The notes beneath the pieces were generated by a model that saw nothing but the letters and a program-made list of their open reading frames with translations, ran no database searches and had not been told where the DNA came from. From IMG/VR virus record IMGVR_UViG_3300029818_000004, positions 1 through 44,131 of that record: a DNA stretch of 44,131 bases; one strand, 5' to 3'. A program made the translations under genes and the position numbers. Positions within the stretch are counted from its first letter, which is position 1. The number at the start of each line of letters is the position of its first letter. Of the stretch, positions 128 to 42,651 are shown in pieces. Source of the stretch: a virus.

Positions 128-1047
128 TGATAATGTTCGCTGTATTCAGTCCCGGCAAGCGTGACTTGGTTTCCACCGCCCGCAACAGCGGTAAACACTT
201 GGAAGTCATCGCGCCATGTGGGCAGAAAGAACGGGTTGGTTGAACCCCGGCAATAATCGGCGAACGTTTGCCACCATGTCCAATCGGCGGGGTCGAAACC
301 GCGCGGCGATTTGAACGTAAGCGGAAACGCAAATTGCGAAGAAGCCCATGACGAACGAAGCGACGGCCAAGCGCCATAGTCGGTTATTTCAAGCCCGGTT
401 ACGACCGATTGACTAAATTCAGTTCCAACGGCGCGCTTATTTAAGACAGGGTATCCGCCAAACATTTGAAGCGTCGCTTTGGCGGCTTCTTCAATGAATG
501 GCGCTAAGAAACCGTCTTCAAAAAACGTAAAGCTTGCGCTTCCCGCATGATTGACAGGGCGACGAATAAACGACGAATTGTCGCTTGAATAGGCGACAAC
601 AAGCGGACAAATTGAAGCGCGGTTCGAAAACGCCTTGGCCAGCGGCGCTAACAAGGCCAAGTTATCAACGTTGACTTCGTCAATGGTAACGACTTCGAAA
701 ACATCGCCTTCGATGATTAAAGCGGACATGCCGGGGCGAAAGTCCGACCGGGCCGGATTGCAAATCAACGTAGTTGCGCCGATTGCAGCTTTCACCTTCA
801 GCTTGACGGCCATGTGAAACAAAGGCCAATTGAACGTCGCTTTGAACTTCGCGAACATTGTTGCGATATGACGGCGAATATCTTGTTCGCGGTCGAAGGC
901 GAAATTCCCCGACCAATTACGCTTCGGAACCGCGCCAAGTGAAACGCGCTGTTCGGTTCCATCATCGGCAACCATTACGTCGGTTTGCCAAATCCATTTT
1001 TCCGTAATGGGCGTTTCGGGCTGTTGAACAAGCAATTCATACGCCAT
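1..1047 (-). CDS. Minor tail protein (lambda gpM / DUF2460-like position), 5' portion; the gene wraps around the window ends (continues 44004->43882, 389 aa on the circular map)
   Basis: Own translation. The ATG at 1047..1045 overlaps the tape-measure TAA (TAATG). The frame stays open for all 349 codons down to base 1 (MAYELLVQQPETPITEKWIWQTDV...TFTPAIPA) and continues in frame to the TAA at 43882..43884. It is absent from the ORF track because it runs off the window. Function inferred from its position directly after the tape measure gene. Confidence 0.8.
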   Translation of the reverse strand, partial: MAYELLVQQPETPITEKWIWQTDVMVADDGTEQRVSLGAVPKRNWSGNFAFDREQDIRRHIATMFAKFKATFNWPLFHMAVKLKVKAAIGATTLICNPARSDFRPGMSALIIEGDVFEVVTIDEVNVDNLALLAPLAKAFSNRASICPLVVAYSSDNSSFIRRPVNHAGSASFTFFEDGFLAPFIEEAAKATLQMFGGYPVLNKRAVGTEFSQSVVTGLEITDYGAWPSLRSSWASSQFAFPLTFKSPRGFDPADWTWWQTFADYCRGSTNPFFLPTWRDDFQVFTAVAGGGNQVTLAGTEYSEHYHPSPSFRRIVITKPDGTQHFAAVTGVALVGGNDRLTFTPAIPA

Positions 1048-4000
1048 TAGCCAAGCCCTAAAATGCCCGCCGTGTCGGACTTACGACGGCGAATAATGTT
1101 CATAATCACTTCTTCGCCGTCTTCGCTGTCCATGGCGCTGATAAATTCGCGTTCGTCAAACATATTCACAATCTTTTGCTTGACTTCGACGGGTTGTCCG
1201 CCGCCGTTGTTCATCGCTTCCCGCTGTTGTGCGGGCGTCTGAATTGTGACCCGTTCGCCGCGCGATACGTTCATGTTGATGTTGTTGTTATCAATCCCGG
1301 CTTTGCCTTGAACCATGAAGTCGCCGCCGGTCGCGAAGTTGCCCACATTGGTTGACATGATACCGGCGACTTGAACGCCCGTCTGAAGGGCGACCGCCCC
1401 GGCCAAGGCGAAGTTCCAAGGCGGGGGCGCGCTGGCCAACGCCTTTTGAACGGCAACGTATCCGTCAATCGTCGCCTGTGCGACGGCGGCGGCTTTGCCA
1501 ATCGCGGCAAGTTCCTTGTTGCCCGACGACGTAAGGCTTGCCAGTTGGCCGAAGAAGGTTGACGCGCCTTGCAAGCGCATTTCGCTGAAGCGCGCTTGAA
1601 GTTCGTATTTGGCTTGTTCATACTGTTGCGTTGACAAAACGTCGTTGTCGCGAAGGCGCTGAAGTTCGGCGTAATAGTTGCTTTCGTTTGCAAGCATGTT
1701 CTGCCGTTCAAGCAACGGGTCAACGATACTGGCGACCGTGCTTTGAATTGCCTGTTGTTCGCGAAGCGCGGCGTTGCGGGCAATCAAGCCTTGCACTTCT
1801 TCCGAAAGCATTTTGACGCGAAGGGCGTCGCCTTCGTAACCTTGTTCGACAAGTGCTTGGCGCACGGTTTCAAGATAGTTGTTAGCTTCGATTGCGTCGC
1901 CATACAGGCCAAGCGCACGTTCGCCCGCTGCCAATTCTTCCTTGAAGTTAAACAGCGGGTCGGTTGCCTGTGCCATCGCCCGACCGGCGCGCGTAATTTG
2001 TTCGGCGTATTGTTCGGCATTGATAACGCCGCGCGCCAACAAGTCGTTCGCCGCCGATTGAACGGCGTTATACGTCCGCATGGGCGCTTGAACTTCTTCG
2101 GTGATACGGTCAAGTTCCGACTGAACATACTTGTATTCGGTGATTGCTTCAATCTTTTCGCGGAACACCGCAAGTTGCGCTTGGTCAAGCGGCATACGGC
2201 GACGAATAAATTCTTGTTCGATTTGGTCAAGACGCTGTTGAACTTCGCGTTCGTCCTTCAACATACGCATACGCGCAAGTTCGTTGTCAAGCGCGTTGGT
2301 CGTTTCGTTGATATAGTCGATTTGCGTCTTGGCTTCCTGCCCGTCGCGCCGGTTGCGGGCGGCACGACCCGGCGAACGGTCGTCAAGGATTTCTTGGGCG
2401 GCGTTGCCGATACGGTCGCGCGCCGCCGTGCGGGCGTTGGCGTCCCAACGCTGCCCGAACGCCGTCAAAGTGCGGTCGGCTTCCCGAACCGCCCCGGTTA
2501 CTTCAGCCGCGATAATGTCGGCGGCGTCCGCCCCTGTGCGGGCGAAGCGTCCGAATGAAACATGCCCCATTTGTTCAATTTCAATGCCGAAGAAGCCCAA
2601 GACTTCGCTTGCCCCGGCGACGACGAAGTTAATTCCGTCGATAACCTTGTTGGTCATAAATTCAATTGCCGACAAGGTTACGTTGGCAATCGCCTTCGCC
2701 GTTTCGGCGGCGACGGTTGGAAGGTTGCCGATAATCTTCGCAATGCCGCGCATACCGCCGACAACCAAGCCGTAAAAGCCGACGAACGCCTTATACAGAA
2801 AGTCAACTGTGAAGTCCCAAGCTTCGCCGACGAAGTTCGTTACGCTGTCCCATTCATCGCTAAAGCCCGCCAAACCTTCCTTCACGGTCGCCCAAAAGCC
2901 CTTCCACATATCGCCCATGGTTACGGTAATGCCGCCGCTGTCTTCTTCAAGGCGCTTCAGTTCGTCGCGGGTCAAGCCAAGCGTATCGACAAAGGCTTTC
3001 AATTCGGGTTCGGCTTCGTCCTTAATCGCTTTATGGAACGAACGAAATTCAACCGCCAAAACGCCAACAATGGCCGCGACCGCTGCGAACGGCGCGAACA
3101 TACGAAGCGTCGCCATCGCCAGCGTTTTGAAGCCGCCTTCAACCCGCATGGACAAATCTTGAAGCTGCGAACCCTGTTGTATCATCACAATGAACGGGTT
3201 CTGTCCGCTGGCCAGCGAAACGCCAATGTCGTTAATCTGTGCGACCAAGTTCGCTTGATGATGACCGGCAAGCTTCGAAGCGTTGCCAGCTTTCAACGTC
3301 GAAGACGCTAAAGCGTCCATTCCCTTCGCGCCCTGTTGTGCGCCGCGCGGCGAAAACCAATGGTGCAAAGCGTCCCTTGTGCTGTCATAAGCGTTCAACG
3401 TCGCCGCTTTAATACGTCCGAAGCGCGATACGGTCGCGGTTTCAAACGCCGCCCCCGCCGCGTCGGCGCGTTGGGTTGCCTGTGTTACTTGGTCAAGACC
3501 GCTACGCATGGCTTCGGTTTGCGCCGCCGCCGTCGCCCGCGAACCGGCCATGCCGCCAAGTGCGCCCGGCGCGGCTTGACGTATGCCCGAACTAGCAACC
3601 GACCGTTCGACCATGGCTTTGATACGCGCTTGGGCGGCGGCTTCCCTGTCTAGCGCGGCGGTGTGTTCCCTTGCCGCCCTTGTCGCTTGTTCCTTGACCG
3701 CGTTCGCCCTGTCCTGTGCCGCCTGTGCCGCCTGTGTGGCGCGAAGGGACGCGCTGGCAGCGGTTGCGGTCGCTTGCATGGCGCGGGCCTGTGCGGCTTC
3801 GGTGCGGGCGGTTTCGGTCGCCAGCCGTTGCTTTTGAAGCGCCGCCTTCGCGTCTTCCATCGCACTACGCGCCGTAGCGGTCGCAAGCCGGGCTTGGGCG
3901 TTCATTTGGGCAGCAAGGGCGCGGGTCGTGCTGTTCGAAGCGGCTTGCAGCTTGACCAAGGCCGAAGTATTCATTGAACCAAGTTCGGCCTTCAGGCGTT

Positions 4001-4109
4001 CAACAAAAGTGTGGGCAGAACCCGCCGCGTCGCCGATTTCGCGAAGCTTCTTTTCAACGTTGGCCGAAACCTTGTCGGTTACTTCAACGTCAATCCGTTC
4101 GTCTGCCAT
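1047..4109 (-). CDS. Tail tape measure protein (about 1020 aa)
   Basis: Track ORF 1047..4157. The N-terminal third is Ala/Gln/Arg-rich coiled coil, followed by central hydrophobic segments and an IVMIQQGSQLQD-type motif. It lies just after the G/G-T chaperones. The likely start is ATG 4109 (MADERIDVEV), one base after the TGA of the upstream gene. The TTG at 4157 is created by a copy of the TGTGGGCA octamer. Confidence 0.85.
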   Translation of the reverse strand: MADERIDVEVTDKVSANVEKKLREIGDAAGSAHTFVERLKAELGSMNTSALVKLQAASNSTTRALAAQMNAQARLATATARSAMEDAKAALQKQRLATETARTEAAQARAMQATATAASASLRATQAAQAAQDRANAVKEQATRAAREHTAALDREAAAQARIKAMVERSVASSGIRQAAPGALGGMAGSRATAAAQTEAMRSGLDQVTQATQRADAAGAAFETATVSRFGRIKAATLNAYDSTRDALHHWFSPRGAQQGAKGMDALASSTLKAGNASKLAGHHQANLVAQINDIGVSLASGQNPFIVMIQQGSQLQDLSMRVEGGFKTLAMATLRMFAPFAAVAAIVGVLAVEFRSFHKAIKDEAEPELKAFVDTLGLTRDELKRLEEDSGGITVTMGDMWKGFWATVKEGLAGFSDEWDSVTNFVGEAWDFTVDFLYKAFVGFYGLVVGGMRGIAKIIGNLPTVAAETAKAIANVTLSAIEFMTNKVIDGINFVVAGASEVLGFFGIEIEQMGHVSFGRFARTGADAADIIAAEVTGAVREADRTLTAFGQRWDANARTAARDRIGNAAQEILDDRSPGRAARNRRDGQEAKTQIDYINETTNALDNELARMRMLKDEREVQQRLDQIEQEFIRRRMPLDQAQLAVFREKIEAITEYKYVQSELDRITEEVQAPMRTYNAVQSAANDLLARGVINAEQYAEQITRAGRAMAQATDPLFNFKEELAAGERALGLYGDAIEANNYLETVRQALVEQGYEGDALRVKMLSEEVQGLIARNAALREQQAIQSTVASIVDPLLERQNMLANESNYYAELQRLRDNDVLSTQQYEQAKYELQARFSEMRLQGASTFFGQLASLTSSGNKELAAIGKAAAVAQATIDGYVAVQKALASAPPPWNFALAGAVALQTGVQVAGIMSTNVGNFATGGDFMVQGKAGIDNNNINMNVSRGERVTIQTPAQQREAMNNGGGQPVEVKQKIVNMFDEREFISAMDSEDGEEVIMNIIRRRKSDTAGILGLG

Positions 4110-4110: not shown

Positions 4111-4545
4111 TCACGACCAATCGTATTTGAAGTTCGTAAGTGAAGCCCTGCCCACAATAACCGAAGCTTTTACGAACCCGCCGGGGTGTTGGGTCGAAGA
4201 CCCTTCGTCTAGTCGCCTGATATACGGCAGCAAGTTCGAAAGGTAAATGGGTTCGCCGGGTTTTGCCGTCGCGATTATTTCCATGGCTTCAGCCAAGGCT
4301 TTACCGGCACTTACGGATTGCGTCGAACCCGCTTGACCAAGCACATACGCCCGAACGGGGAAGACGACTAGCGCCCCGGCGGACGCTTGCCAGTTCGACA
4401 AAGCTTGCGAAGTATCGACCGGCGTAATGTTCACTAGGTAGCGAACAATTTCGGTCGCAACGTGTTTCTTAGCTTCGTTGCCAGCGTCCGCCGCCTTGGA
4501 CGCCTTTTCATACATGCGTTTTTGCAACGTTGCTAAGTTACCCAT
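4111..4545 (-). CDS. HK97 gp10-like neck/tail-completion family protein (144 aa)
   Basis: ITPVDTSQALSNW and IYLSNLLPYIRRLDEGSSTQHPGGFV resemble the aPvdTG.Lr.s and pYa..vE.G motifs of the HK97 gp10 family. Tightly packed between the chaperones and the tape measure. Confidence 0.5.
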   Translation of the reverse strand: MGNLATLQKRMYEKASKAADAGNEAKKHVATEIVRYLVNITPVDTSQALSNWQASAGALVVFPVRAYVLGQAGSTQSVSAGKALAEAMEIIATAKPGEPIYLSNLLPYIRRLDEGSSTQHPGGFVKASVIVGRASLTNFKYDWS

Positions 4546-6968: not shown

Positions 6969-7451
6969 TTAGTTCCTTTCGTCATATTGAAATTCAACGC
7001 TTACGTTCCAACGCCAAAACGAAGCTTCGGAAGTCACTTCCTTGGCGGTGCTATCGCGGAACCAAACGCCCGAAATGGTTTCGACGTTGCGGTATATACG
7101 GGCAATTCGCCCGGCCAGCAAGTCGCCAATGTTATAGCTGTTGACGACGTTACGGGGCGCGAAGACTTGAATAATCAGTTGGCCGTTCGTCTGCCAACAA
7201 GCGGGCGAACCGTCGGGTTCATCGGTCATCATGTGGGCAGATTGGCGCGACAACAGCACTTGCGAAAGCGCCCGCGTCCAAAACTTGCCGCCCATGGTCT
7301 TGTATGCTTCGGACACTTCGTCGGGCGTTTCAATTCCCTGCCAACGCATTGAAAGCGCGGCCAACGCCGGGTCAAGCGCCTTCAGCGTCGCGACTTCGTC
7401 CAACAACAGTTGAAACATTTCGTCGCGCGCTTGTGAACGTGTCGCAACCAT
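6969..7451 (-). CDS. Neck / tail terminator-like protein (position-based)
   Basis: 160-aa ORF. Its ATG overlaps the upstream stop (TAATG). Located between the head-tail joining genes and the major tail gene. Confidence 0.4.
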   Translation of the reverse strand: MVATRSQARDEMFQLLLDEVATLKALDPALAALSMRWQGIETPDEVSEAYKTMGGKFWTRALSQVLLSRQSAHMMTDEPDGSPACWQTNGQLIIQVFAPRNVVNSYNIGDLLAGRIARIYRNVETISGVWFRDSTAKEVTSEASFWRWNVSVEFQYDERN

Positions 7452-7837: not shown

Positions 7838-8334
7838 TATACGCGCAACGTGCGAATACGCGCGCCATGCCCACATTCATAGGGGCGAAGGGCGGCGGAA
7901 ATGGCGGGCAGCGTCGGCGCGTCGTATGCCATCGCGGTTTCGTATTCGGTTTCGATTGGACCGACCTTTTCGCGCTTGACCGACGAAGACGAAGCCGAAA
8001 CGTTCGGGGTCAAGTCAACGCCGGAATGAATGGCAAGCGCCGCGTCAAGTTGGGCGCGCTTGATTGGCAGCGGAACCGCGTCGTTGGGAAATTCCAACGC
8101 CCCGTAATAGTTTTCGACATTACGCGGGAACGGCAAGGCTTGCGTCGCGACCGTCGGATTGCCGCGAAAGCACTTGGTTAGAATAAAGTCCATGGCCTTG
8201 ACCAAGTCAACGTCGCTGGCGTCGGCGTCCGCAATCGTAACGCCGCGCGCCGCCGCATAGGCGATGTATTCGGCGCGCGAAACGAACGACGCGGCGTCCG
8301 CTTTGCCTGTGCCGTCTTCAACAATCAAGGCCAT
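7837..8334 (-). CDS. Head-tail adaptor-like protein (gp6 / DnaT_2-like N-terminus)
   Basis: MALIVEDGTGKADAASFVSRAEYIAYAAARG resembles the lvvEDGtG..nAnSYvs.aeAdaY start typical of this adaptor family. Gene order is head genes, then this gene, then neck genes. Confidence 0.45.
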   Translation of the reverse strand: MALIVEDGTGKADAASFVSRAEYIAYAAARGVTIADADASDVDLVKAMDFILTKCFRGNPTVATQALPFPRNVENYYGALEFPNDAVPLPIKRAQLDAALAIHSGVDLTPNVSASSSSVKREKVGPIETEYETAMAYDAPTLPAISAALRPYECGHGARIRTLRV

Positions 8335-10162: not shown

Positions 10163-10861
10163 CTATGATTGCTGTTGCGCTTCGGCGTTGGCCGCTTTCC
10201 GTTCCGAAATACGCGCGGCCAAATCGGCAGCGGACAACTTGGAAAGGTCGGGCTTTTCGCCTTGTTCGCCATCCTTCGGTTGCGTCCCGCTACCAAGGGG
10301 CTTGACCGTCGTTTTCGGGGGCGTCCCGCCGCCCGAACCGTTCGATGCTTTGATAATAGCGGCGAAATCCTTGTTGGCAACAAATTCTTCGCCCAACTTG
10401 TCGATTGTCATATCAGACGGCTTGCCGTCCGCCCCAAGAACCTTCGTAACGGGTTCGTCGCCGGTCATGTCGGTGATAAGGCGCGACCGAATGTGCGGCA
10501 AAAGAAGGCTTGGCGACGTGCTGATTTTCGTCGCCAGCGCAAGCGCCGCATTGTCAACCAAGGTCTTTTCGGCGAACGTCTTCAGCTTGCCGGTTTCCTT
10601 GGCGTGTTCGGCCTTCAACGTTTCAACGTCGGGCATGGCTTCAATTGTCGCCTTCGCTTCGCTAAGCGCGGTCTTGGTCGCCTTGTGGGCTGTCCGTTCC
10701 GCTTCAAGCGCACGTTTGACCGGCCCAACGTCTTCGCCCTTCGGCAAGTCGGCAACGTCAAGGACGTATTCGCCGTCGGTTTCCCCGGCGATGTATTCGC
10801 CCTGAAGTTCGGGCGTAAGCTTGTCGTATTGCGCTTTGTTGACTTTGAAACGAAGTGCCAT
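10163..10861 (-). CDS. Capsid scaffolding protein (232 aa)
   Basis: Charged, Ala/Lys/Glu-rich helical protein located between the Mu-F-like gene and the capsid gene. Confidence 0.6.
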   Translation of the reverse strand: MALRFKVNKAQYDKLTPELQGEYIAGETDGEYVLDVADLPKGEDVGPVKRALEAERTAHKATKTALSEAKATIEAMPDVETLKAEHAKETGKLKTFAEKTLVDNAALALATKISTSPSLLLPHIRSRLITDMTGDEPVTKVLGADGKPSDMTIDKLGEEFVANKDFAAIIKASNGSGGGTPPKTTVKPLGSGTQPKDGEQGEKPDLSKLSAADLAARISERKAANAEAQQQS

Positions 10862-10879: not shown

Positions 10880-11794
10880 CTATGCTAAAATAAACCGTCG
10901 TTTGCCTTCATACTGCCGAAGCGTAAGCGGCGCGGTGCCTTCATAACGCGCCGAAGGCGACCCGTCAAAGGCATCATTCAAGAATACCGCCGGTTGACGC
11001 TTTGCCCACATATCAAACCGAAGGTCGCGCGAAGGGCTATTGGCGTAAACAGGGACGATTGACGACCGGCAACGAACATGCGCCGGGGGAACCGGCCCTT
11101 TGCCGTAAGCGTAGCGGTTGCCGTCGCGTTGACGGCAAACGTCCGTCGTCGCTTCGTCCATTATCGAAACCCATTCGTATTGACCGAAGGCTTTCTTGGC
11201 CAAAGTCATGTTCGCCTGTGCCGATAGGTGTTGCATGATAGTTGCAATGGCGGCGACGCTGGCGTTGTCTAGCTGGCGACCAATGCCGTCTTTATAGCCG
11301 CGCGACTTCGTTCCAAGAAACCCGTTGATAACTTCGGCTTTGGTCAAACGGTTCGCGTATCCGTTCGTCACAAGCCGTTCAATGCGGGTCATCGCATACA
11401 CCGCCGAACCGTTTAGGAAGGCAACCCAAAACAAGCCATTCGCGCCCATAGGTTCGGTCTTCGACGCTGCGAAGATTGGGGCGGGGTCGGCTTCGGTGTT
11501 GAAGTAAGTTCCGAAGGCTTCGGCTTCAACGACAACGAACCGTTCAAGCCATTCGACAAGCGAACGCAACCATGGGTTGAAGATTGACCGCATGGACAAG
11601 CGAAGCGCGACCAAAAGCTTGTTCAATTCGGTCTTGTTAGCGTCGCCAAGGTTTTCGTATTGGATAAGCGAAAGGTGCTTACGAAGTTCGAAGTCAAGCT
11701 TCCCCAAGACTTGCGGGAAGTCTGCCGACCGGCCCGCCTTCAAACCTTCCAAATAGATTTGATGACGAACCAATATGTCGAACAAGTCCGCCAT
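10880..11794 (-). CDS. Head morphogenesis protein, SPP1 gp7 / Mu F-like
   Basis: C-terminal DEATTDVCRQRDGNRY...PPAHVRCRSSIVPV matches the D..tc..C..ldG / P.HpnCRC signature. Lies directly after the portal gene. Confidence 0.7.
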   Translation of the reverse strand: MADLFDILVRHQIYLEGLKAGRSADFPQVLGKLDFELRKHLSLIQYENLGDANKTELNKLLVALRLSMRSIFNPWLRSLVEWLERFVVVEAEAFGTYFNTEADPAPIFAASKTEPMGANGLFWVAFLNGSAVYAMTRIERLVTNGYANRLTKAEVINGFLGTKSRGYKDGIGRQLDNASVAAIATIMQHLSAQANMTLAKKAFGQYEWVSIMDEATTDVCRQRDGNRYAYGKGPVPPAHVRCRSSIVPVYANSPSRDLRFDMWAKRQPAVFLNDAFDGSPSARYEGTAPLTLRQYEGKRRFILA

Positions 11795-15328: not shown

Positions 15329-15370
15329 GCCGTCAACCTATGCGACGAACGGCGCGAAGTCTAGCCCACA

Positions 15371-27216: not shown

Positions 27217-27229
27217 TTCAATCACCTTA

Positions 27230-27447
27230 TAGAATGATATTGAAGAGGCAGCGAATGGGCTAAGTGCTTGTTTTTAAGCCAAATAGAATAAATAGAATAA
27301 TAGAATACATATACCTAGTCGTATTTTACGTCGGAACGGACATGAAACGCCCCCATTTGACCAACTAGCGTTCTATTGCTCTATTTGTTCTATTTCCCAT
27401 GATTTCAAGGGTTTAGGCCATTCTAAGGCCATTCACCCTTATTCTAT
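27230..27447. repeat. AT-rich iteron array arranged as an inverted repeat (candidate replication origin or early control region)
   Basis: AATAGAATA occurs three times at 27282..27307. The array is mirrored by TTCTATT / TCTATTT / TTCTATTT at 27371..27395 (22 of 25 positions match as an inverted repeat, with a 63-bp spacer). Extra TAGAAT/ATTCTA cores sit at 27230, 27420 and 27441. AGGCCATTC is directly repeated at 27415 and 27426. Confidence 0.6.
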
Positions 27448-31173: not shown

Positions 31174-32084
31174 ACGACTTTTCGTCCGCCTTTGGCAATA
31201 TCGTGCCGAACCGTCCCGCAAGCCCACAAGGGGCGGCGTCGGGCGGGCCGTCCATCCTTGGGCAAGTCACGCGCGGGCGGACGAACCAAGGCGCGCGTAT
31301 CGTCATTGGCGGGCAGGAAAAGCAAGGCAAGACGACCCTTGCCGCCGACGCGCCCCGCGCAATGCTTGTCCAATTGGAAGTCGGCGGCGCGGTCGTGTCG
31401 ATACCGAAGACGCCGCTTCTTTCGTCGTATGCCGAAATTATGCAATTCATCGCTGAAGTGAAGGCCGAAGCACAGGCGGGACGCTTCGAAGCGAAGACCC
31501 TTGTATTCGATACCGGCACGGCGCTTGAAATGCGTATCAACGACGCGACCGTTGCGGCGGACAACAAGGGCAAACAATCCATGGAAACCGCCCATGGCGG
31601 ATACGGCAAGGCGTATGCCTATGCGAACGGGTTGTTTGACGACTTCCTTCAAGCTTGCGACGAACTGGCCATTCATGGCGGCATTAACATTGTCTTGACG
31701 TGCCATGTCTTCGCAGCAAAGCAAATCGACCCGGCCTTTGGCGAATACGACCAATGGGACTTGTTGCTTCACAGTCCGAAGAACAACAAGACGTATGGCA
31801 AGCGCGAAATGTTGACGCAATGGGCGGACTTGGTCGGCTTTTTGCATGAACCGTTCTTCGTAACGAAGGGCGAAGGTGAAAACCTTCAGCGCGGCCAATC
31901 GAAGAATATGGGGCGCGTCTTGGGCGTGTCTAGGACGCCGGGTTATGTCGCGGGCAACCGCTACGGCATGACCGGCGAAATCGTAATTCCCGACCCGAAC
32001 GTGAACGGTTACGGTTCGGCGTGGAACGCGCTGGCGCAAGCAATATACAACGCCAGCGGTATCGACTTGTTCAATCGTGATTAG
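31170..32084 (+). CDS. RecA-fold AAA ATPase, Sak4-like recombination/replication protein
   Basis: Walker A IGGQEKQGKTT and Walker B-like TLVFDTGTALE. About 300 aa, followed by an SSB-like gene, which is the usual Sak4 context. Confidence 0.6.
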   Translation: MNDFSSAFGNIVPNRPASPQGAASGGPSILGQVTRGRTNQGARIVIGGQEKQGKTTLAADAPRAMLVQLEVGGAVVSIPKTPLLSSYAEIMQFIAEVKAEAQAGRFEAKTLVFDTGTALEMRINDATVAADNKGKQSMETAHGGYGKAYAYANGLFDDFLQACDELAIHGGINIVLTCHVFAAKQIDPAFGEYDQWDLLLHSPKNNKTYGKREMLTQWADLVGFLHEPFFVTKGEGENLQRGQSKNMGRVLGVSRTPGYVAGNRYGMTGEIVIPDPNVNGYGSAWNALAQAIYNASGIDLFNRD

Positions 32085-33826: not shown

Positions 33827-35614
33827 GTGTCGGCTATCGTTCAAGGTTCGAAGTTTGACCCGCGTTGGTATCAAACCGAAGCGGTGAACGCGACGTTCGA
33901 TTACTTCGACAATGTGGGCGGTTGGGATTACGAAATTAACGCGCCGCGCCGGGCGAACCCGCTTATCTGTCTGCCCACAGGGACCGGCAAAAGCTTGGTC
34001 ATCGCAATGATTGTATATCGGGCGCTTATGGCGTTTCCCCAAACCCGTATCATCATGGGAACGCACGTCAAAGAATTGATTGGGCAGAACGCCGCGAAGC
34101 TGAAGCAAGTTTGGCCGGAAGTCCCGCTTGGTATCAACAGCGCCGGGTTGAAGTCCCGCGAATTTGCCGCGCCGGTCATATACGGCGGTATCAAATCCAT
34201 GGTCGGACAGTTGGACGACTTCGGCCATACGTCGTTCGGTCATCGCGACCTTATGTTGATTGACGAAGCGCACTTGGTTTCGCCGTCTGCCGATACGTCT
34301 TACGTCACGTTCATTCTTGAACTTATGGCGAAGAACCCATGGCTGAAGGTCATTGGACTTTCGGCGACGCCCTATCGTATGGGCTTAGGGCATTTGACGA
34401 ACGGAAAGATATTCACCGACGTTGCATACAACCTTTGCGACATGGAAGGCTTCGCCCGGTTGCTGTCCGACGGGTTCTTGTCGCCGATATATCCCCGGCC
34501 AACCGGGGTTAAGTTGGACGTGTCGGGCGTCGGCATATCGAACGGCGAATACAACATGAAGGCGCTTCAAGCCGCTGTTGACGACCGCGACGTTAGTTAC
34601 GCCGCACTTGGCGAAATGGTCAAGTATGGTTGGTCGCGTCAGGCTTGGATGATTTTTGCCGCTGGCGTTGAACACGCCGAACACTTGGCCGAAATCCTTC
34701 GCGTCTGCTATGGCGTGACGGCGGCGGCTGTTCATAGCAAGAACAGCGACAAGGTAAACGACGAAATAATTCGCGAATTTAAGCGCGGAAACCTTCGTTG
34801 CATTGTGAACGCCAACAAGCTTACGACCGGCTTCGATTTCCCGCCAATCGACCTAATCGGCATGTTCCGGCCTTCAACTTCAACCGGGCTTTGGGTTCAA
34901 ATGTTGGGCAGGGGAACCCGGCCATGGGGCGGCGGATATATCACCGTTGACGAAGCGACCGGCGAACAAGCGTATTGGCCGGGCGCAAAGAACGGTTGTA
35001 TGGTCTTGGACTTCGCGGGCAACACGCCGCGCCTTGGACCTATCAACGACCCCGTCATTCCCAAGCCGAAGTCGGAAGGACCGCCGGGCGACGCGCCCAT
35101 TCGGACTTGCCCCGAAGACCGCGAAGACGTTCACGGCAAAATCGGTTGTGGATTTTACAACCATTCATCGGCCAAATGGTGCGTCATGTGCGGCTTTGAA
35201 TTTCCGCCGGGCGACGGTCCCGACATATCGGCAGTCGCCGGAACGGACGAACTTATTCGGTCGTCGTCGGACTTGCCCGAAATGAAATACTTCAACGTTG
35301 ACCGCGTGATATACGTCAAGCATGTGGGCAGGAAGTCGGGCCGGTCAACAATTCGTTGCGCTTATTATTGCGAAGGCATCAACTGTTTTTATGAATATAT
35401 CACCGTTGAACCGAAGATTGAAGAAGACGGCACGACCAAAACCGATTTCGCCACAAAGAAAGGCCGCGATTGGTTCCGCCAACGCACAGGACAAGAACCG
35501 CCCGAAACCAACGACGAAGTGATTGCAAACAGTCATTACCTTCGGACGCCAACCCGTATCGTCGTTCATATCAACAAGAAACCATCGCCGGATATAAAAA
35601 GCTATGAATTTTGA
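33827..35614 (+). CDS. SF2 DEAD/DEAH-box DNA helicase with a C-terminal zinc-finger region
   Basis: Motif I LPTGTGKS, motif II LIDEAH, motif III LSATP and motif VI QMLGRGTR. The Cys cluster is CPEDREDVHGKIGCG...CVMCG. The track ORF starts at TTG 33794; a GTG at 33827 just after the upstream stop is more likely. Confidence 0.8.
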   Translation: MSAIVQGSKFDPRWYQTEAVNATFDYFDNVGGWDYEINAPRRANPLICLPTGTGKSLVIAMIVYRALMAFPQTRIIMGTHVKELIGQNAAKLKQVWPEVPLGINSAGLKSREFAAPVIYGGIKSMVGQLDDFGHTSFGHRDLMLIDEAHLVSPSADTSYVTFILELMAKNPWLKVIGLSATPYRMGLGHLTNGKIFTDVAYNLCDMEGFARLLSDGFLSPIYPRPTGVKLDVSGVGISNGEYNMKALQAAVDDRDVSYAALGEMVKYGWSRQAWMIFAAGVEHAEHLAEILRVCYGVTAAAVHSKNSDKVNDEIIREFKRGNLRCIVNANKLTTGFDFPPIDLIGMFRPSTSTGLWVQMLGRGTRPWGGGYITVDEATGEQAYWPGAKNGCMVLDFAGNTPRLGPINDPVIPKPKSEGPPGDAPIRTCPEDREDVHGKIGCGFYNHSSAKWCVMCGFEFPPGDGPDISAVAGTDELIRSSSDLPEMKYFNVDRVIYVKHVGRKSGRSTIRCAYYCEGINCFYEYITVEPKIEEDGTTKTDFATKKGRDWFRQRTGQEPPETNDEVIANSHYLRTPTRIVVHINKKPSPDIKSYEF

Positions 35615-35855: not shown

Positions 35856-36887
35856 ATGGCAGGACGTAAAAAGGCCGTATCGAAGACCGCCGAAAAGCTG
35901 GCGAAGGCGCTTACCTTCGTCGGACACGGCGTCGAAGAAGGCGGCGAAGTTTGGAAGGCGCACGGTCGGATTATCAACGGCTATCTTGTCACCTTCAACG
36001 GGACGTTGGCCGTTGGCCATCCTATCGAAGAAGAATTGACGACTTGCCCACATATCCCGAATTGGATTGCCGCCATAAACAAGGCCGGGAAGACCCTTGC
36101 CATGACACAGAACGACAAGGGCAACTTGTCGGTCAAGGGCGACAACATTCGGGCAATCGTGCCGTGCCTTAGCCCGTCGGACATGCCGCCGCTAATGCCC
36201 GACGTAAACATTGCCGTCGTCAACGACGCGCTGAAGGAAGGCTTCAAGGCGCTGTTGCCGCTTTGCAGCGACGACGGCGACCGGGTTCACGAAATCAGCA
36301 TCATGGTTCGGGCGAATACCATGGTCGCAACGAACGGAACGGTCATCTTCGAATATTGGCACGGCATTGACTTGCCCCAAATCGCTGTAATGAAGGCCAG
36401 CGCGAAGGCCGTTGCCAGCGTCGCCGAAAAGCTTGAAGGCTTCGGCTTTTCCGGTCGCACGGCAACGTTTTGGTTCGAAGGCGGGGCGTTCATGCAATGC
36501 GCGTTAGCCGCTGGCGAATGGCCAGCCGTTGACAAGGTGTTGAACACGCCGGGCGAACCCGACGAACTGCCCGCCGGGTTCTTCGACGGCATTGAAGCCG
36601 TAGCAAGCTTCAGTAAGGACGGGGCAATTCATTTCGATACCGACAAGGTTCGGTCGGGCTTTGCCAACTACGGCGACGACGGGCCGGTGTATGGGGCAAC
36701 CTATGACGTGCCGGGCATGTTGAAGGGTCACACCTTCAGCGCCCGCTTGTTGAAGCTGATTAAGCCTGTATGCGCCAAAATCGACTATTGGACGAACGAC
36801 GACCGGGCGACCTTCTTCGGCCCGGTTGCCAACGGCGAAACCGCCGCTAAAATTCGCGGCGTAATAATGAAAATGAAATCGAACTAA
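35856..36887 (+). CDS. DNA polymerase III beta-subunit-like sliding clamp (DnaN-like)
   Basis: Colinear with E. coli DnaN landmarks. LSVKGDNIRAIVPCLSPSDMPPL matches LVRSGRSRFSLSTLPAADFPNL. TMVATNGTVIFEY matches TVATDGHRLAV. AAGEWPAVDKVLNTPGE matches VDGRFPDYRRVLPKNPD. The C-terminus IRGVIMKMKS matches YVVMPMRL. 343 aa. Confidence 0.65.
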   Translation: MAGRKKAVSKTAEKLAKALTFVGHGVEEGGEVWKAHGRIINGYLVTFNGTLAVGHPIEEELTTCPHIPNWIAAINKAGKTLAMTQNDKGNLSVKGDNIRAIVPCLSPSDMPPLMPDVNIAVVNDALKEGFKALLPLCSDDGDRVHEISIMVRANTMVATNGTVIFEYWHGIDLPQIAVMKASAKAVASVAEKLEGFGFSGRTATFWFEGGAFMQCALAAGEWPAVDKVLNTPGEPDELPAGFFDGIEAVASFSKDGAIHFDTDKVRSGFANYGDDGPVYGATYDVPGMLKGHTFSARLLKLIKPVCAKIDYWTNDDRATFFGPVANGETAAKIRGVIMKMKSN

Positions 36888-36889: not shown

Positions 36890-38911
36890 GTGTTCTTTGA
36901 CGACAAACCAACACCCTTCAGGGAAAAGCGCCAACGGTTCAAGGGGTCGTTGAAAACGCTTTCGTATAAGCCGAAGGTTCGCGTCTTCAGCCAAGACCCG
37001 TTCAATGAATTTGGGCCGGGCGATACCGTCGTATTTGATACCGAACATTATCGCAACTATGCGTTGTATATGTTCAAGCACTTGAAGTCGGGCAAATACT
37101 TCTTCCTTGAAAAGCGCGGCGCTGGCAACTTCGAACATGGCAACGACCTTTCGCGCGCCATGTGGTTCTTTCGCGTCGTGACGTTCAACGGGCAAAAGTA
37201 TGACTTGCCTATGGTATCGCTTGCCATTCAAAACGCCGACACAGACAACTTGAAAGCCCTATCGGACGAAATCATTAAAGACGGGAAGATATTTCACAAC
37301 GCGAACCCCGGTTACAATCATATTGACCTTTGGGACGTTGCGCCGCTGCCCGAAACGTCGCTGAAGACATACGGCGCGCGGTTGCATACGAAACGACTTC
37401 AAGAGCTGCCCATTCACGAAGCGGCGATGTTGTCCGAAGAAGACATGGACGCAATTCTTGATTACTGTTGCAACGATTGCGACGTGACCGAAGAACTATG
37501 GGACGCAATGGCGGGCGCGATGGAACTTCGCGAAGCCTTGACGGCTGAATACAAAACCGACCTTCGGTCCAAGTCGGACGCACAGATTGCCGAAGCGGTC
37601 ATTGGTTCCGAACTGAAGAAGCTTACCGGCTATTGGCCGAAGCGCCCCGAATTTGACCCTGATTTTACCTTTCAATATACCGCCCCCGACTTCGTCCGCT
37701 TCACGACGCCAGCGTTCCAACGCGCGCTTGAAACGGTCCTGTCCGCCGACTTCAAGTTGGACAAGGGCGGGTCGCCGCAAATGCCTGAAGCGGTCGCCGG
37801 TCTTCGGACACGTTGCGGCGGGTCGGTCTATAAAATGGGCATGGGCGGACTTCATTCGTCCGAAAAGTCAACGACGCACCGCGCCGACGACGAATACGCG
37901 CTAATTGACCGGGACGTTGCGTCGTTTTATCCCCGGTTGATATTGAACAATTCATGGTTCCCCGAACACTTGGGAACCAAGTTCTTGACCATCTTCGACA
38001 CGATTGTTGAACGTCGCTTGGACGCCAAGGCGAAGTCGAAGGAATGTAAGAAAGCTGGCGACCCCGACGGCGCGCGTATGTGGGCAATCGTAAGCGACGG
38101 GTTGAAAATCACTATCAACGGAACCTTCGGCAAGCTTGGTTCGATGTATTCAACGATATATTCGCCGCGCTTGCTGTTGCAAGTCACGATTACCGGCCAA
38201 CTTTGCCTAATGATGTTGATTGAAGCAATCGAAGCAATTGGCATTTCGGTTGTAAGCGCGAACACCGACGGCATTGTGATAAAATGCCCCCGTCATCGCG
38301 AAGCTGAATTGAACGCGGTTGTCGCCGAATGGGAACGCACGACAAGCCTTGAAACTGAAGAAACCCGTTACAAAATGACGTGTTCGCGCGACGTGAATAG
38401 TTATATCGCGGTCAAAGAAGAACCGGGCGACCCGACAAGCCCATACTTTGACGAACGCATGGGCGTTAAGTCGAAAGGCGCGGGCGTGTATTGCGAACGC
38501 GGTTCGGCGCTGAATAGCCCGCTTTCAAAGAACCCCGAATATCTGATATTGAACGACGCGCTTGTTGCCTTGGTCGCGACCGGGCAGCGTATCGAAGACA
38601 CGATTAACGCTTGCAACGACATACGCCGGTTCGTCGCCGTCAAAAACGTTCGCGGCGGCGGTCATCAAGACGGGCAGTATCTAGGCAAGGTCGTTCGTTG
38701 GTATTTTGCCCAAGGTTCATTTTCCGAAATCAACTATACGGGCAGCGGAAACAAGGTCGGCGGAACGGACGGCGCGAAGCCGCTTATGGAACTGCCCGAC
38801 GAAATGCCCGACGATTTGAACCGTCAATGGTATATTGAAAAGGCATACGAAACGTTGGACAAGGTCGGTTTCTTCGGCGGCAAGTCCGAACAAACCGCCT
38901 TGTTCGACTAA
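36890..38911 (+). CDS. DNA polymerase with 3'-5' exonuclease domain (B-family-type motifs)
   Basis: Exo I VVFDTEH, Exo II FNGQKYDLP and Exo III YCCNDCD. Polymerase motifs DVASFYPRLIL (DxxSxYP), KITINGTFGKLG (KxxxNxxxG) and SANTDGIVI (DTD-like). GTG start 2 nt after the clamp gene stop. Confidence 0.75.
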   Translation: MFFDDKPTPFREKRQRFKGSLKTLSYKPKVRVFSQDPFNEFGPGDTVVFDTEHYRNYALYMFKHLKSGKYFFLEKRGAGNFEHGNDLSRAMWFFRVVTFNGQKYDLPMVSLAIQNADTDNLKALSDEIIKDGKIFHNANPGYNHIDLWDVAPLPETSLKTYGARLHTKRLQELPIHEAAMLSEEDMDAILDYCCNDCDVTEELWDAMAGAMELREALTAEYKTDLRSKSDAQIAEAVIGSELKKLTGYWPKRPEFDPDFTFQYTAPDFVRFTTPAFQRALETVLSADFKLDKGGSPQMPEAVAGLRTRCGGSVYKMGMGGLHSSEKSTTHRADDEYALIDRDVASFYPRLILNNSWFPEHLGTKFLTIFDTIVERRLDAKAKSKECKKAGDPDGARMWAIVSDGLKITINGTFGKLGSMYSTIYSPRLLLQVTITGQLCLMMLIEAIEAIGISVVSANTDGIVIKCPRHREAELNAVVAEWERTTSLETEETRYKMTCSRDVNSYIAVKEEPGDPTSPYFDERMGVKSKGAGVYCERGSALNSPLSKNPEYLILNDALVALVATGQRIEDTINACNDIRRFVAVKNVRGGGHQDGQYLGKVVRWYFAQGSFSEINYTGSGNKVGGTDGAKPLMELPDEMPDDLNRQWYIEKAYETLDKVGFFGGKSEQTALFD

Positions 38912-40190: not shown

Positions 40191-42651
40191 TCAATACAAG
40201 GTCGTAATCAATAGTCAATTCGCCGTTGTTCGGAAGAACAATAACCGGCATAGGTGCGGACGCGATGGAATAAAGCCCGTCTTTCTTCGCTTCGATATGA
40301 ACGACGATATTTCCAACATGGTCTTCGTTGGTTGTGACGAAGTCATACGGCAAAGCTTGGTCGTCGGCAATGACCGTCACGACCCCGTCAAGTTCAAACG
40401 AAATGCGGTATGTCGTGCCAGCTTCAGCCGTCGCCGCCGCGTCGTCTTCGAACCATGCTTCAGTTACGTTTGCCCGGTTGCGCGGGCGCGCGTCGATTGG
40501 GATTGTCGCCCCTGCCGTGAAAATCTGCCATGCGGCCCGATTTCCGTCCGCTGTGGCATAGTCGGGGGCAATCACGCGGGAAACCCGCCCGACCGGGGTA
40601 AAGGGCGTCACAAGGGCGCTGTCCGCCGGGGAACTGCCCGTTGCCGTGCGGTCGATGAAATAAACGCTAAATTCTTCGCCGGTCACAACGGCGTCGTCAA
40701 AAAAGCCTTCCTGCCCTTCAAAGAAATAAAGCACGTCGTCCGCCGCATGGGCAAACCAACCCGTATCAAACATGGCGCGATGAACGTTGTTCAGCGTAAC
40801 GGTTCCGTCTTCGTTGTCCGTCGCGCTTTCATAAGCCAACAATTCGTTACCAAGAACGAACAAGTTACCGCCAAGGCGAATGTCTTCGGCATTGATGACT
40901 TCCGACACGTTACCGATATTATCAATCAACACTTCGGCAACAACGCCGTCGTCCCAACCTTCGAACCGCCCAAGCGGCGCGACAAGCTGGCCAGTGTTGG
41001 CATAAGGTGCCATGTTCAACACTTCAACGTCGTCGGTTCCTTCTTCAATGTAAGCGTTGAAGCCAAGCGTATAGCTTGACGGCGCTTTGACCAAAGAAGC
41101 GACGCTTGATTGACCTTCAGGGGTCGCCAACCCGGCGTTGTAATCAAGGAACGCGGGAAGTTCGAACAAGGCGAAGTCTTCAACGTCTTGCGGCGCATAG
41201 CTGTTCGGGACGTATCCCGACGGAACCGGGGCGCTGATAACCGTCGCGTCAAGCGCGTATTCGTCTTGAACAACCGAAAGCGTGATACGTCCGTTTTCAA
41301 GCGACCCGTTGCCCATTTTGCGAATACGCATGACCATTTGCGAAATGCCGTATTCCGGCCAAACCAAAATGAACGGGTCGCCCGGCCTAAGCGAAGACAC
41401 AACCCGGTTCATTGAAAGTTCGCACGAATAAAGCGGAACGTTCAAGTTGGACAGTTCACGCGCCGCAATGGCGTTCGCAAGGCCAGCTTCTTTGACGCCC
41501 GGCATGTTGATTTCAACCGGGCGTTGCTTTCCTTGGAAGCGCAACAAGGCGAAGTCTTTCGCGATTGCAACCTTGTCGTCAACGTATCCGGCTTCGCGGT
41601 CGATATACTTCAGCCGAACGACGTTGTTCGTTTCGCTCCAAAGCTTCTTCGTATAGTTGCGAACTTCGATGATTTCGGACGGCGTAAGAACCGGCAAATC
41701 AAGAATGTCGTAATCGTTCCGAAGAAGCTTCAGTTCGACAAGGCCGGTCGTCTGTTCTTCGAAGATAATGGCGTTCAACTGGCGAAGAATTTGTTTGACC
41801 GCGTCCTTTGCTTCGGTCGCGTTTGAAATTGAAATCGAAATGCCGTTGCCTTCGCCGAACGCCTGAAGCGCAACCGTGCGCCATTGTTCGACGTTTATCT
41901 TGGCCGGGTCATAGCCAAGGTTGCCCCAATCGGTTTGAAATATGTCGAACAGCACTTCAACAATGTTGGCGTCAAGACCGTTCGGCATAATGTGCCGCAT
42001 ATCAGCCAAGCCAAGGCCGTTAGTGAAGTAAGCGGCTTCGCATGACACGGCGTCGATTTGCGGCGAATTGCCCCACCAAAAATCGCGAAATACCATGTGG
42101 GCAATGCCCACATAAGCCGGGCAGTCCGCCCCCAAATGGGTTTCGTTCCAAACGTCCGCCGGTTGGTCGAAGTTACCGCAATACATGGCGATGTTGCCAG
42201 CAATGCCGCCCCGGTTGCCGTCGTTCGAACCGCCGTAAAGTTCAGGCAAGTTTATGTTGATTACATTAACGCAAGGGTCTTCGTAAAGGCAACCCGACCA
42301 AACAAGGTTTTCGCCGAACCAAAGCTTGCGGTAAACGACGCCCGGTCCAAGCGCCCAAGCCAAATCGACGCCCGAATAATACTTGTAACCCGTAATGACC
42401 TTCTTCGAACTGAATAGGCCAGTCTTTACCTTCTTCTTAATCGGTTCGGCGCGAAAGTTGCCAAGCCCGATAGTGTTCGGCGAAGTAAGCTTTAGCGTTC
42501 CATAAAAGCGCGTAACGGGGTCGCCTTCGTCCGACCGGGGAAAGCTGAAGTCGTCCAACCCTTTAGCTTGGGCGTTTTCCAACTTGATTTTCGGCGAAAG
42601 GAAGGCCGTCAAGATAAACCCGGCGACGAATAGTGCAATGAAGAACCACAT
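40159..42651 (-). CDS. Central tail-tip / host specificity protein (lambda gpJ / GTA g15-like, 830 aa)
   Basis: N-terminal TM, then LDDFSFPRSDEGDPVTRFYGTLKL, resembling the ..D...P.s.eG.PIP.vyGt.r. start of Phage-tail_3 host specificity proteins. Size and position after the gpL-like gene agree. Confidence 0.7.
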   Translation of the reverse strand: MWFFIALFVAGFILTAFLSPKIKLENAQAKGLDDFSFPRSDEGDPVTRFYGTLKLTSPNTIGLGNFRAEPIKKKVKTGLFSSKKVITGYKYYSGVDLAWALGPGVVYRKLWFGENLVWSGCLYEDPCVNVININLPELYGGSNDGNRGGIAGNIAMYCGNFDQPADVWNETHLGADCPAYVGIAHMVFRDFWWGNSPQIDAVSCEAAYFTNGLGLADMRHIMPNGLDANIVEVLFDIFQTDWGNLGYDPAKINVEQWRTVALQAFGEGNGISISISNATEAKDAVKQILRQLNAIIFEEQTTGLVELKLLRNDYDILDLPVLTPSEIIEVRNYTKKLWSETNNVVRLKYIDREAGYVDDKVAIAKDFALLRFQGKQRPVEINMPGVKEAGLANAIAARELSNLNVPLYSCELSMNRVVSSLRPGDPFILVWPEYGISQMVMRIRKMGNGSLENGRITLSVVQDEYALDATVISAPVPSGYVPNSYAPQDVEDFALFELPAFLDYNAGLATPEGQSSVASLVKAPSSYTLGFNAYIEEGTDDVEVLNMAPYANTGQLVAPLGRFEGWDDGVVAEVLIDNIGNVSEVINAEDIRLGGNLFVLGNELLAYESATDNEDGTVTLNNVHRAMFDTGWFAHAADDVLYFFEGQEGFFDDAVVTGEEFSVYFIDRTATGSSPADSALVTPFTPVGRVSRVIAPDYATADGNRAAWQIFTAGATIPIDARPRNRANVTEAWFEDDAAATAEAGTTYRISFELDGVVTVIADDQALPYDFVTTNEDHVGNIVVHIEAKKDGLYSIASAPMPVIVLPNNGELTIDYDLVLIDGERIGFDA

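Follow-up and report, generated by a model that had tools for sequence, protein, structure and literature searches.

An evenly spaced, lineage-specific octamer in a host-spanning group of siphophages and its possible reading by the phage primase-polymerase/helicase

The closest described systems to the one considered here are primase-polymerases (PrimPols) that start synthesis at short sequences. For NrS-1 PrimPol, recognition is most efficient at GTGG and GTGA; the enzyme can also use a site of 8 nt, and it initiates on the first base 5ʹ of the site (PMC8718748, PMC7102993). ORF904 of pRN1 recognizes GTG (PMC8718748). The helix-bundle domain of such enzymes has a role in template recognition, and NrS-1 PrimPol requires its own domain for priming (PMC8718748). 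In the published work, the 8-mer of NrS-1 is described as present in just one or two copies, in the middle of the genome (PMC7102993). Here, we describe an octamer, TGTGGGCA, that occurs 22 times in a viral DNA of 44,131 nt (IMG/VR record IMGVR_UViG_3300029818_000004; “the window” hereafter means this whole stretch), and we weigh the case for its being read by the phage's own primase-polymerase/helicase.

The octamer in phage and host genomes

A preliminary description of this DNA reported 22 exact copies of TGTGGGCA, 11 per strand, and every one of them is in place. Its claim of over-representation also holds: 22 copies are seen against about one in dinucleotide shuffles (1.0 ± 1.0, maximum 4), Markov models of orders 0–3 predict 0.4–1.6 copies (~0.5 at order 3), and TGTGGGCA is the top-ranked 8-mer in the window (z = 31). 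The 24 one-mismatch neighbors of the word average 0.9 copies, with a maximum of 4. When synonymous codons were shuffled within each gene, keeping the proteins and the per-gene codon usage, the mean was 4.9 copies (standard deviation 1.3) and the maximum in 1000 runs was 10; thus, counts of 10 or more are not routine. The bias in flanking bases was confirmed, with A at −1 in 17 of the 22 copies and A, G, T and C at +1 in 11, 8, 3 and 0, respectively, as were six additional copies of the 7-mer core (at 10684, 15364, 20425, 26369, 31222 and 33913) and the codon contexts (xVGx 7, W-A 3, LPT 3, AH 4, CPH 3, CGH 1). Relative to the 64 open reading frames (ORFs) that we called in the window, guided by the strand layout of related phages, 21 of the 22 sites lie within ORFs (11 sense, 10 antisense) and one, at 18381, is intergenic. 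Full-text literature searches for TGTGGGCA, TGTGGTTA and TGTGGTCA and for the phage genera found no description of the motif; the paper describing Loki confined its MEME run to upstream regions (PMC5313236).

The window represents the whole genome of a siphophage, circularly permuted and ~76% identical over the structural genes to the Sphingomonas phages Lucius, Kharn and Eidolon, with Birtae and Kimi as more distant relatives. In all five of these phages, TGTGGGCA is again the top 8-mer (19, 18, 24, 15 and 18 copies, respectively). The same is true of four further phages, all syntenic with the window: the Rhodobacter phages RcSpartan (16 copies) and RcTitan (17), the E. coli phage Halfdan (19 in 42 kb) and the Pseudomonas phage vB_PaeS_C1 (18 in 40 kb). 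At least 584 relatives of the primase came up when IMG/VR was scanned by alignment, and words were counted in the 78 best loci of at least 8 kb (1.34 Mb, GC content 35–58%). These loci contain 500 copies of TGTGGGCA, which is the commonest TGTGGNNN word in 60 of the 78.

The sites are under purifying selection and have been gained repeatedly. In pairwise genome alignments, full conservation of sites is 2.7–4 times that of background 8-mers; between Lucius and Eidolon, for example, 13 of 17 sites are fully conserved, against a background of 19% (P = 6e-7). A few positions are kept all the way from the window to Kimi and Birtae. At lineage-specific sites, the orthologous positions read CGTGGGCA or differ by 3–4 bases (GGTCGGAA, ATTCGGAA, CGCGGGCC), which indicates that sites have been created repeatedly. 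Together, the synonymous shuffles, the conservation of sites and the arrival of new ones through 3–4 substitutions support the earlier proposal that selection acts on the DNA word and not on a peptide.

The sites are regularly spaced along each strand. For the 11 sites on each strand of the window, the coefficient of variation (CV) of the spacing is 0.32 and 0.43 (P = 0.0008 and 0.005), and the per-strand values for Halfdan (0.17), Lucius (0.28), RcSpartan (0.30) and Eidolon (0.34) all have P ≤ 0.001. Furthermore, the orientations of successive sites in the window alternate beyond chance (18 runs against 12 expected, z = 2.6). Across 608 unique sites, flank information is found solely 5ʹ of the word, with A at −2 in 59% and A or T at −1 in 76%. 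In the 78 IMG/VR loci there is a family-wide strand bias of 325:175 toward the primase/terminase sense strand, and this bias is 73% downstream of the primase gene versus 58% upstream. The sites in the window are listed here, with exact copies of TGTGGGCA first and 7-mer cores after them.

217..224, + strand: antisense in a small ORF
1340..1347, − strand: in the tape-measure gene; kept in Lucius, Kharn, Birtae and Kimi
4010..4017, + strand: kept in Lucius, Kharn and Eidolon
4149..4156, − strand: kept in Lucius, Kharn and Eidolon
7232..7239, + strand: orthologous position CGTGGGCA in Lucius and Kharn, TGTGGGCA in Eidolon
7868..7875, − strand: kept in Lucius, Kharn and Eidolon
11003..11010, − strand: in the head-morphogenesis gene; kept in Lucius, Kharn, Eidolon and Birtae
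13423..13430, + strand: in the large-terminase gene; orthologous position CGTGGGCA in Lucius, Kharn and Kimi
18381..18388, + strand: sole intergenic site
18775..18782, − strand: exact copy
20932..20939, + strand: exact copy
23696..23703, − strand: exact copy
25983..25990, + strand: exact copy
26964..26971, − strand: ~470 nt downstream of the primase stop codon; kept in Lucius, Kharn and Eidolon
28674..28681, − strand: in the primase-helicase gene; also in Eidolon; Lucius has CGCGGGCC, hence a gain by 3 substitutions
29425..29432, + strand: in the primase-helicase gene; orthologous positions ATTCGGAA or GTTCGGAA, hence a gain by 4 substitutions
33972..33979, − strand: in the SNF2/DEAD helicase gene; orthologous positions GGTCGGAA, hence a gain by 4 substitutions
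35323..35330, + strand: in the helicase gene; common to Eidolon only
36045..36052, − strand: in the sliding-clamp gene; kept in Lucius, Kharn and Eidolon
38079..38086, + strand: in the PolB gene; orthologous position CGTGGGCA in Lucius and Kharn, TGTGGGCA in Eidolon
42096..42103, + strand: left half of the perfect palindrome TGTGGGCAaTGCCCACA
42105..42112, − strand: right half of the palindrome TGTGGGCAaTGCCCACA
10684..10691, + strand: variant TGTGGGCT (7-mer core)
15364..15370, − strand: variant TGTGGGCT (7-mer core)
20425..20431, − strand: variant TGTGGGCT (7-mer core)
26369..26376, + strand: variant TGTGGGCG (7-mer core)
31222..31228, − strand: variant TGTGGGCT (7-mer core)
33913..33920, + strand: variant TGTGGGCG (7-mer core)

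Two of these arrangements deserve mention. The sites at 42096–42112 together form a perfect 17-bp palindrome, TGTGGGCAaTGCCCACA, within the gene for an 830-aa tail protein. In Lucius (~34793) and Eidolon (~34975), a short hairpin rich in GC (GCCCC...aTGTGGGCAaat...GGGGC) encloses an octamer in its loop and could present it as single-stranded DNA.

Other lineages carry variants of the word. The top word is TGTGGTTA in the E. coli phage CAjan (41 copies in 50 kb), TGTGGTCA in the Sphingomonas phage MMDA13 (39 in 50 kb) and TTGTGGGT in the Salmonella phage Zoltan (29 in 50 kb, with 40 copies of the core TTGTGGG). The Pseudomonas phage JG054 has 29 copies of TGTGGTCA and 13 of TGTGGTTA in 50 kb, and sub-clades in IMG/VR carry TGTGGGTA, or TTGTGGGG with 14–20 copies. 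TGTGG is invariant across all of these forms (TGTGGGCA, TGTGGTYA, TTGTGGGT, TGTGGGTA and TTGTGGGG). The variant follows the phage lineage and not the host: Sphingomonas and Pseudomonas each host both TGTGGGCA and TGTGGTCA phages, and E. coli hosts both TGTGGGCA and TGTGGTTA phages.

TGTGGGCA appears to be a phage-owned, cis-acting signal and is not derived from the host. We sampled host DNA by scanning species-representative genomes with a Sphingomonadales-specific 16S primer, which gave 120 loci and 499,700 nt of non-rRNA flank (GC content 64.8%). This DNA has 6 copies of TGTGGGCA against 5.8 expected, placing the word 13,244th of 30,462; the copies split 2:4, both small counts, relative to the rRNA (replication) direction. 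In 50 kb of E. coli K-12 there are 14 Chi sites (GCTGGTGG) and no copy of TGTGGGCA. Overall, the word is ~40 times denser per kb in phage than in host DNA, and the phages that carry it infect four host orders. No copy is present in Carli, which is unrelated to these phages and was isolated on the strain that also yielded Birtae and Kimi (PMC10385605). A homology search with the phage sliding clamp returned phage contigs only and no host homologs. The preliminary description had raised the possibility of a Chi-like signal of the host; this is not supported, given the chance-level, unskewed counts in Sphingomonadales, the absence of the word from 50 kb of E. coli K-12 and from Carli, and the identity of the word in phages of E. 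coli, Pseudomonas, Rhodobacter and Sphingomonas. A host-wide or uptake word inherited by amelioration, also suggested there, is refuted by the chance-level count in 500 kb of Sphingomonadales DNA.

The primase-polymerase/helicase as a candidate reader

What protein reads the word? Every phage with the octamer or one of its variants encodes a homologous PrimPol-helicase (22–59% identical). The primase-helicases of CAjan, MMDA13, JG054 and Zoltan are 22–32% identical to that of the window, and the architecture of the replication module is common to these phages. No TGTGG word is found in the lambdoid phage HK639, which has a TerL 49% identical to that of the window and is without such a primase, or in AN14, which has a TerL 41% identical and an unrelated primase. 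The enzyme of the window consists of an archaeo-eukaryotic primase-polymerase N-terminus, a helix-bundle domain and a DUF3987 (D5-like) helicase. The features that concern it are the following.

27439..29835, − strand: primase-polymerase/helicase gene, proposed reader of TGTGGGCA; 798 aa, PF22763 and PF13148
29008..29154, − strand: helix-bundle domain of the primase-polymerase, residues ~228–276 (Pfam PF22763 match to 228–276)
27226..27438, no strand: AT-rich intergenic region and putative replication origin; 213 nt, directly 3ʹ of the primase gene

The primase is 31% identical to NrS-1 primase over 274 aa (E = 2e-28, BLAST), and its matches in PDB are 7OLA, a primase-helicase (1e-27), and the NrS-1 N300 entries 6A9W, 6K9A and 7RR3 (1e-22). 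Within the helix-bundle domain, a SQSEADFALVDILAFYTQNR block is near-invariant across the TGTGGGCA clade. The NrS-1 genome (AB746912) has 11 GGTTACACTTT iterons at 17062–17371, clustered just 3ʹ of the primase gene; these include TGTGGTTA/TGTGGTCA-like forms and the published in vitro 8-mer (TTTGGTTA at 17198). The homology to NrS-1, the GTG/GTGG core contained in TGTGG, and the flank information on the 5ʹ side lead us to favor the primase as reader. The restriction of flank information to the 5ʹ side and the strand bias fit strand-specific reading with initiation 5ʹ of the word. We judge the chances to be close to even, though somewhat short of it, that TGTGGGCA is a dispersed recognition or priming site of the phage's own primase-polymerase/helicase (27439–29835, − strand); both the identity of the reader and the occurrence of priming or helicase loading at the site are inferred from sequence.

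We propose that the helix-bundle domain would recognize 5ʹ-TGTGGGCA-3ʹ on single-stranded DNA exposed during replication, and that de novo synthesis would start just 5ʹ of the word, at the conserved A/T-rich dinucleotide. Under this scheme, the TGTGG core would be the counterpart of the GTG/GTGG read by the characterized homologs, and the last three bases would co-evolve with the enzyme in each phage lineage. Selection would keep a site every ~3–4 kb per strand, a spacing like that of Okazaki fragments.

Several observations weigh against reading by the primase. The association is confounded: all TGTGGGCA phages retain the primase-helicase, SNF2 helicase, Cas4-like exonuclease, DUF669 single-stranded DNA-binding protein (SSB), clamp and TerL. 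These proteins are inherited together, and hence phylogeny alone cannot single out the reader. The alignment of the helix-bundle domain identified no specificity-determining residues. The Klebsiella phage Carvaje, which has only the PrimPol N-terminus in common with the window (35% identity), shows no more than a weak excess of TGTGGTTA (10 copies against 2.9 expected). Characterized replicative primases use 3–4-nt sites, and an 8-nt requirement on the lagging strand would be unusual. The sites of NrS-1 are clustered at the origin and not dispersed, and the iterons beside the primase gene of the window are different and AT-rich. There is no flip in site orientation at the putative origin, where the bias merely weakens from 73% to 58%. 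Lastly, the exact NrS-1 8-mer differs between papers (PMC8718748, PMC7102993).

Other candidate readers are encoded in the window. The gene order begins with TerS, TerL, portal, and head and tail genes. A replication block on the opposite strand encodes PolB, the clamp, the SNF2/DEAD helicase, the Cas4-like exonuclease, the DUF669 SSB and AAA_24/Sak4, and is followed by a small helix-turn-helix (HTH) gene, the 798-aa primase-helicase, small early genes, VRR-NUC and a GH108 lysin. We rejected the HTH protein beside the primase as reader: an endonuclease takes its position in RcTitan (PMC8601537), which nonetheless keeps 17 sites, and vB_PaeS_C1 has no detectable homolog. The DNA polymerase was rejected on the replacement of PolB by Pol I in Birtae and Kimi, TerS on the lack of detectable conservation beyond Kimi, and TerL on its homologs in HK639 and AN14, which have no such word. 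Sites of the promoter, terminator or stoperator type do not fit a word that is intragenic in 21 of 22 cases, with 11 copies sense and 10 antisense. Origin iterons were likewise set aside: the word is dispersed genome-wide with regular spacing, and there is a separate AT-rich iteron cluster at 27226–27438. This cluster contains ATAGAAT/ATTCTAT iterons in both orientations, no TGTGGGCA, and 2 of the genome's 6 copies of GAG/CTC. By analogy with NrS-1, whose iterons adjoin the 3ʹ end of the primase gene, it is probably the replication origin.

Alternative readings of the octamer

An alternative that we consider unlikely, although it survives best, is that another conserved phage protein reads the word. 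TGTGGGCA could act in the manner of Chi and label DNA as “self”, holding back the SNF2-helicase/Cas4-like nuclease pair of the phage or a nuclease of the host, or it could serve an architectural or regulatory DNA-binding protein that needs sites at regular spacing. The SNF2 helicase, Cas4-like exonuclease, DUF669 SSB, clamp, DUF7173 and VRR-NUC are all present in every TGTGGGCA phage, and most have homologs in the clades with variant motifs too. Moreover, even spacing in both orientations would suit protection from a nuclease entering at any break, and host DNA, with ~40 times fewer sites per kb, could be told apart from self. However, we know of no characterized member of these protein families that reads a specific 8-mer, and the link to a GTGG core exists for a homolog of the primase and for none of these proteins. 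An asymmetric 8-mer with one-sided flank information is also atypical of a dimeric binder of double-stranded DNA.

It is rather improbable that the word marks places where one strand of the packaged DNA is interrupted (nicked), as happens in T5, Pseudomonas phage tf and phage Rembedalsseter. The precedent is a 9-nt motif, WACTRTGAC, whose 13 copies coincide with nicks and which is conserved in 60 related phages (PMC11780129); it resembles TGTGGGCA in length, copy number and independence of the coding frame, and the family-wide strand bias of TGTGGGCA would also fit. In the described phage, however, all 13 copies are on one strand, whereas the split here is 11:11 in the window and 65:35 family-wide. 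Sites on opposite strands can be as close as 9 nt in the window (42096+/42105−), 31 nt in JG054 and 55 nt in CAjan, such that nicking both would break the duplex. The palindrome TGTGGGCAaTGCCCACA argues against nicking at both of its sites in particular, and would permit a dimer to bind there. No nickase was recognized in the window.

A role as dispersed packaging signals, by which the terminase would pick phage DNA and start headful packaging at many places, seems very unlikely to us. Neither a pac fragment nor a bias in read starts could be detected in these phages, whose genomes are fully circularly permuted (PMC5313236, PMC10385605, PMC8601537); the ~40-fold higher density of the word in phage than in host DNA, the polarity of the sites and the conservation of TerL are also in its favor. 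The difficulty lies with the terminase itself. TerS is usually the subunit that recognizes DNA. No similarity could be detected between the TerS of the window and those of RcSpartan, Halfdan, vB_PaeS_C1, CAjan and HK639, yet the word is identical or nearly so across the first four of these phages, and TerL homologs occur in HK639 and AN14 in the absence of any such word.

We give little credence to the idea that a sequence-specific DNA modification is directed at TGTGGGCA. The Queuovirinae, which are sister clades, do carry 7-deazaguanine modifications in their DNA, but the modification contexts in CAjan are GA and GGC, and not TGTGGTTA. The idea of a modification target had been raised in the preliminary description; we found no evidence for it, and no methyltransferase or other modification gene in the window. 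Nor is there an obvious reason why modification would lead to a 40-fold enrichment or to even spacing.

Lastly, an element derived from or read by the host is barely credible, whether as Chi for RecBCD/AddAB, as a skewed or uptake word, or as a weak DnaA box: TGCCCACA has CCACA in common with the DnaA box TTATCCACA, and the length and density of the word are Chi-like, but it is no commoner than chance in 500 kb of Sphingomonadales DNA and shows no skew there, is absent from 50 kb of E. coli K-12 and from Carli, which shares its host with Birtae and Kimi, is one word across four host orders, and differs between two phage lineages on one host. Canonical DnaA boxes are at expectation (0–8 copies) in the ten phages tested, TTATCCACA is absent or nearly so, and YTGCCCACA differs from TTWTNCACA at two positions. 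Thus, of the earlier suggestion of binding sites for a phage or host protein, the phage-protein half is the best-supported direction, whereas the DnaA half is not supported, since DnaA boxes are not enriched and the variable positions of the word track the phage lineage and not the host.

Side observations, implications and known systems

Several other words are unusual in these genomes. GAG/CTC occurs 6 times on both strands of the window (14369, 14836, 27245, 27379, 37403 and 41636) against ~1500 expected from base composition. It is similarly scarce in Lucius (27 copies), Kharn (31), Eidolon (29), RcSpartan (5), Halfdan (66) and vB_PaeS_C1 (23), and also in two of the IMG/VR loci (L009 and L014). 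Kimi (986), Carli, CAjan, MMDA13 and JG054 do not avoid it, and Birtae is partly depleted (356), so that the members carrying Pol I (Kimi and Birtae) are those with no avoidance or partial avoidance. The avoidance is independent of the host, and may therefore reflect a phage-encoded, frequently cutting nuclease with self-immunity by avoidance, or a widespread defense. GATC and GTAC are entirely absent from the window (~150 of each expected) and GGCC is halved; many 6-bp palindromes are missing as well, including ACGCGT, ACCGGT, AGCGCT and ACATGT (39, 31, 27 and 21 expected, respectively). Relatives avoid different short palindromes: Birtae has 451 copies of GATC but none of GTAC, and Kimi has only 28 of TCGA.

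A second word enriched in the window, TGGCCAGC (consensus YTGGCCAGCG), has 14 dispersed copies against 0.5 expected (636, 1431, 3207–3216, 6005, 15493, 21479–21488, 22108, 25345, 32156, 36519, 40986–40995 and 43291). Three times it forms the palindrome GCTGGCCAGC, and it is not among the listed top 8-mers of relatives. GCACAGGG, the reverse complement of CCCTGTGC, occurs 4 times within 115 nt (32677–32791) of the DUF669 SSB-like gene, probably as a repeated peptide-coding unit; the window as a whole has 10 copies of GCACAGGG/CCCTGTGC against 0.55 expected. GTGG/CCAC occurs 68 times in the window against 149 expected, and 31 of the 68 are within GTGGG. This under-representation of GTGG outside the octamer is seen in the window and not in Lucius, Kimi or Carli, and hence is probably not a general property.

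Carli (OR225223) has a dispersed word of its own, the near-palindromic 13-mer GGAAAYGATTTCC. Its 36 copies are in both orientations and genome-wide, including annotated genes, with a spacing of ~1.6 kb (CV 0.42, P < 0.0002). Carli encodes a different type of primase-polymerase (Prim-Pol + PriCT-2 + DUF5906/VapE), and a search of IMG/VR gave no relatives of this primase. Phages with enzymes of this sort may thus generally have evenly spaced, lineage-specific words.

What would reading by the primase mean for these phages? It is possible, although we would not call it probable, that a host-spanning group of siphophages uses a genome-wide “address code”, in which the fused primase-polymerase/helicase reads an octamer that recurs at even spacing and that joins a constant TGTGG core to a 3ʹ trinucleotide specific to the lineage. 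The group would include Septimatrevirus, Lokivirus, Titanvirus, the Sphingomonas phages, Queuovirinae, Rosemountvirus and at least 584 uncultivated relatives. If there is such a code, priming (or helicase loading) would be confined to phage DNA, a self/non-self principle for phage DNA replication, and enzyme and code would co-evolve as lock and key. The enzyme would be the first replicative primase to depend on a long, selected, genome-wide recognition word. Recognition sequences of primases are already known; what would be new is an 8-mer at 40-fold excess, evenly spaced on both strands, in hundreds of phages across host orders and with lineage variants. On this reading, a replication enzyme would impose a 16-bit sequence requirement across the genome, shaping codon choice in nearly every gene, and this requirement would be frozen across phages of hosts as far apart as E. 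coli and Sphingomonas.

There are also possible practical consequences. TGTGG plus three bases would be a simple, host-independent signature by which the phage group and its sub-lineages can be recognized in metagenomes. The lineage variants would offer a natural system for how the helix-bundle domains of archaeo-eukaryotic-type primases read DNA, and cultivated members exist among phages of E. coli (Halfdan, CAjan), Pseudomonas and Rhodobacter. In phage engineering, recoding sites or inserting several kb without them could cripple replication. Whether or not it is the primase that reads it, a universally conserved, regularly spaced octamer in hundreds of phages calls for an explanation.

Four other known systems resemble this one in part. 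The stoperators of cluster A mycobacteriophages (L5 gp71 sites) are likewise asymmetric (~13 bp), number 20–30 per genome and are read by a phage protein; however, they are mostly intergenic, oriented with transcription and found in temperate phages, whereas 21 of the 22 sites here are intragenic, half are antisense, and the phages are virulent. The nick-associated motifs of T5, tf (TACT/RTGMC) and Rembedalsseter (WACTRTGAC) are also conserved, gene-independent lineage motifs of 8–9 nt, at 13–25 copies per ~45 kb, but theirs are on one strand only and TGTGGGCA is on both, sometimes within 9 nt. Chi sites, such as those of the Chi-rich, orientation-biased phage P1, are, like TGTGGGCA, asymmetric, frame-independent 8-mers that are dense in a phage genome and depend on orientation. 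In contrast to TGTGGGCA, Chi is set by RecBCD/AddAB of the host, whose chromosome has Chi in excess and with a skew; TGTGGGCA shows neither there, and is unchanged across hosts with different Chi sequences. T7 gp4 reads 5ʹ-GTC-3ʹ, in extended pentamers, and offers the parallel of short, strand-specific template signals used repeatedly by a fused primase-helicase with a spacing of Okazaki-fragment size. Its sites of 3–5 nt are frequent enough by chance and do not amount to a 16-bit word at 40-fold excess, and the enzyme belongs to the unrelated DnaG-type/TOPRIM family.

The closest system is that of NrS-1 PrimPol and pRN1 ORF904. The primase of the window is homologous to that of NrS-1 in both the catalytic and the helix-bundle domains, the TGTGG core of the octamer variants contains GTGG, and the informative flank is the 5ʹ one, from which NrS-1 PrimPol also initiates. 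The long site of NrS-1, however, occurs once or twice, within an iteron cluster at the presumed origin, whereas the 8-mer described here is intragenic and occurs ~20–40 times per genome, evenly on both strands.

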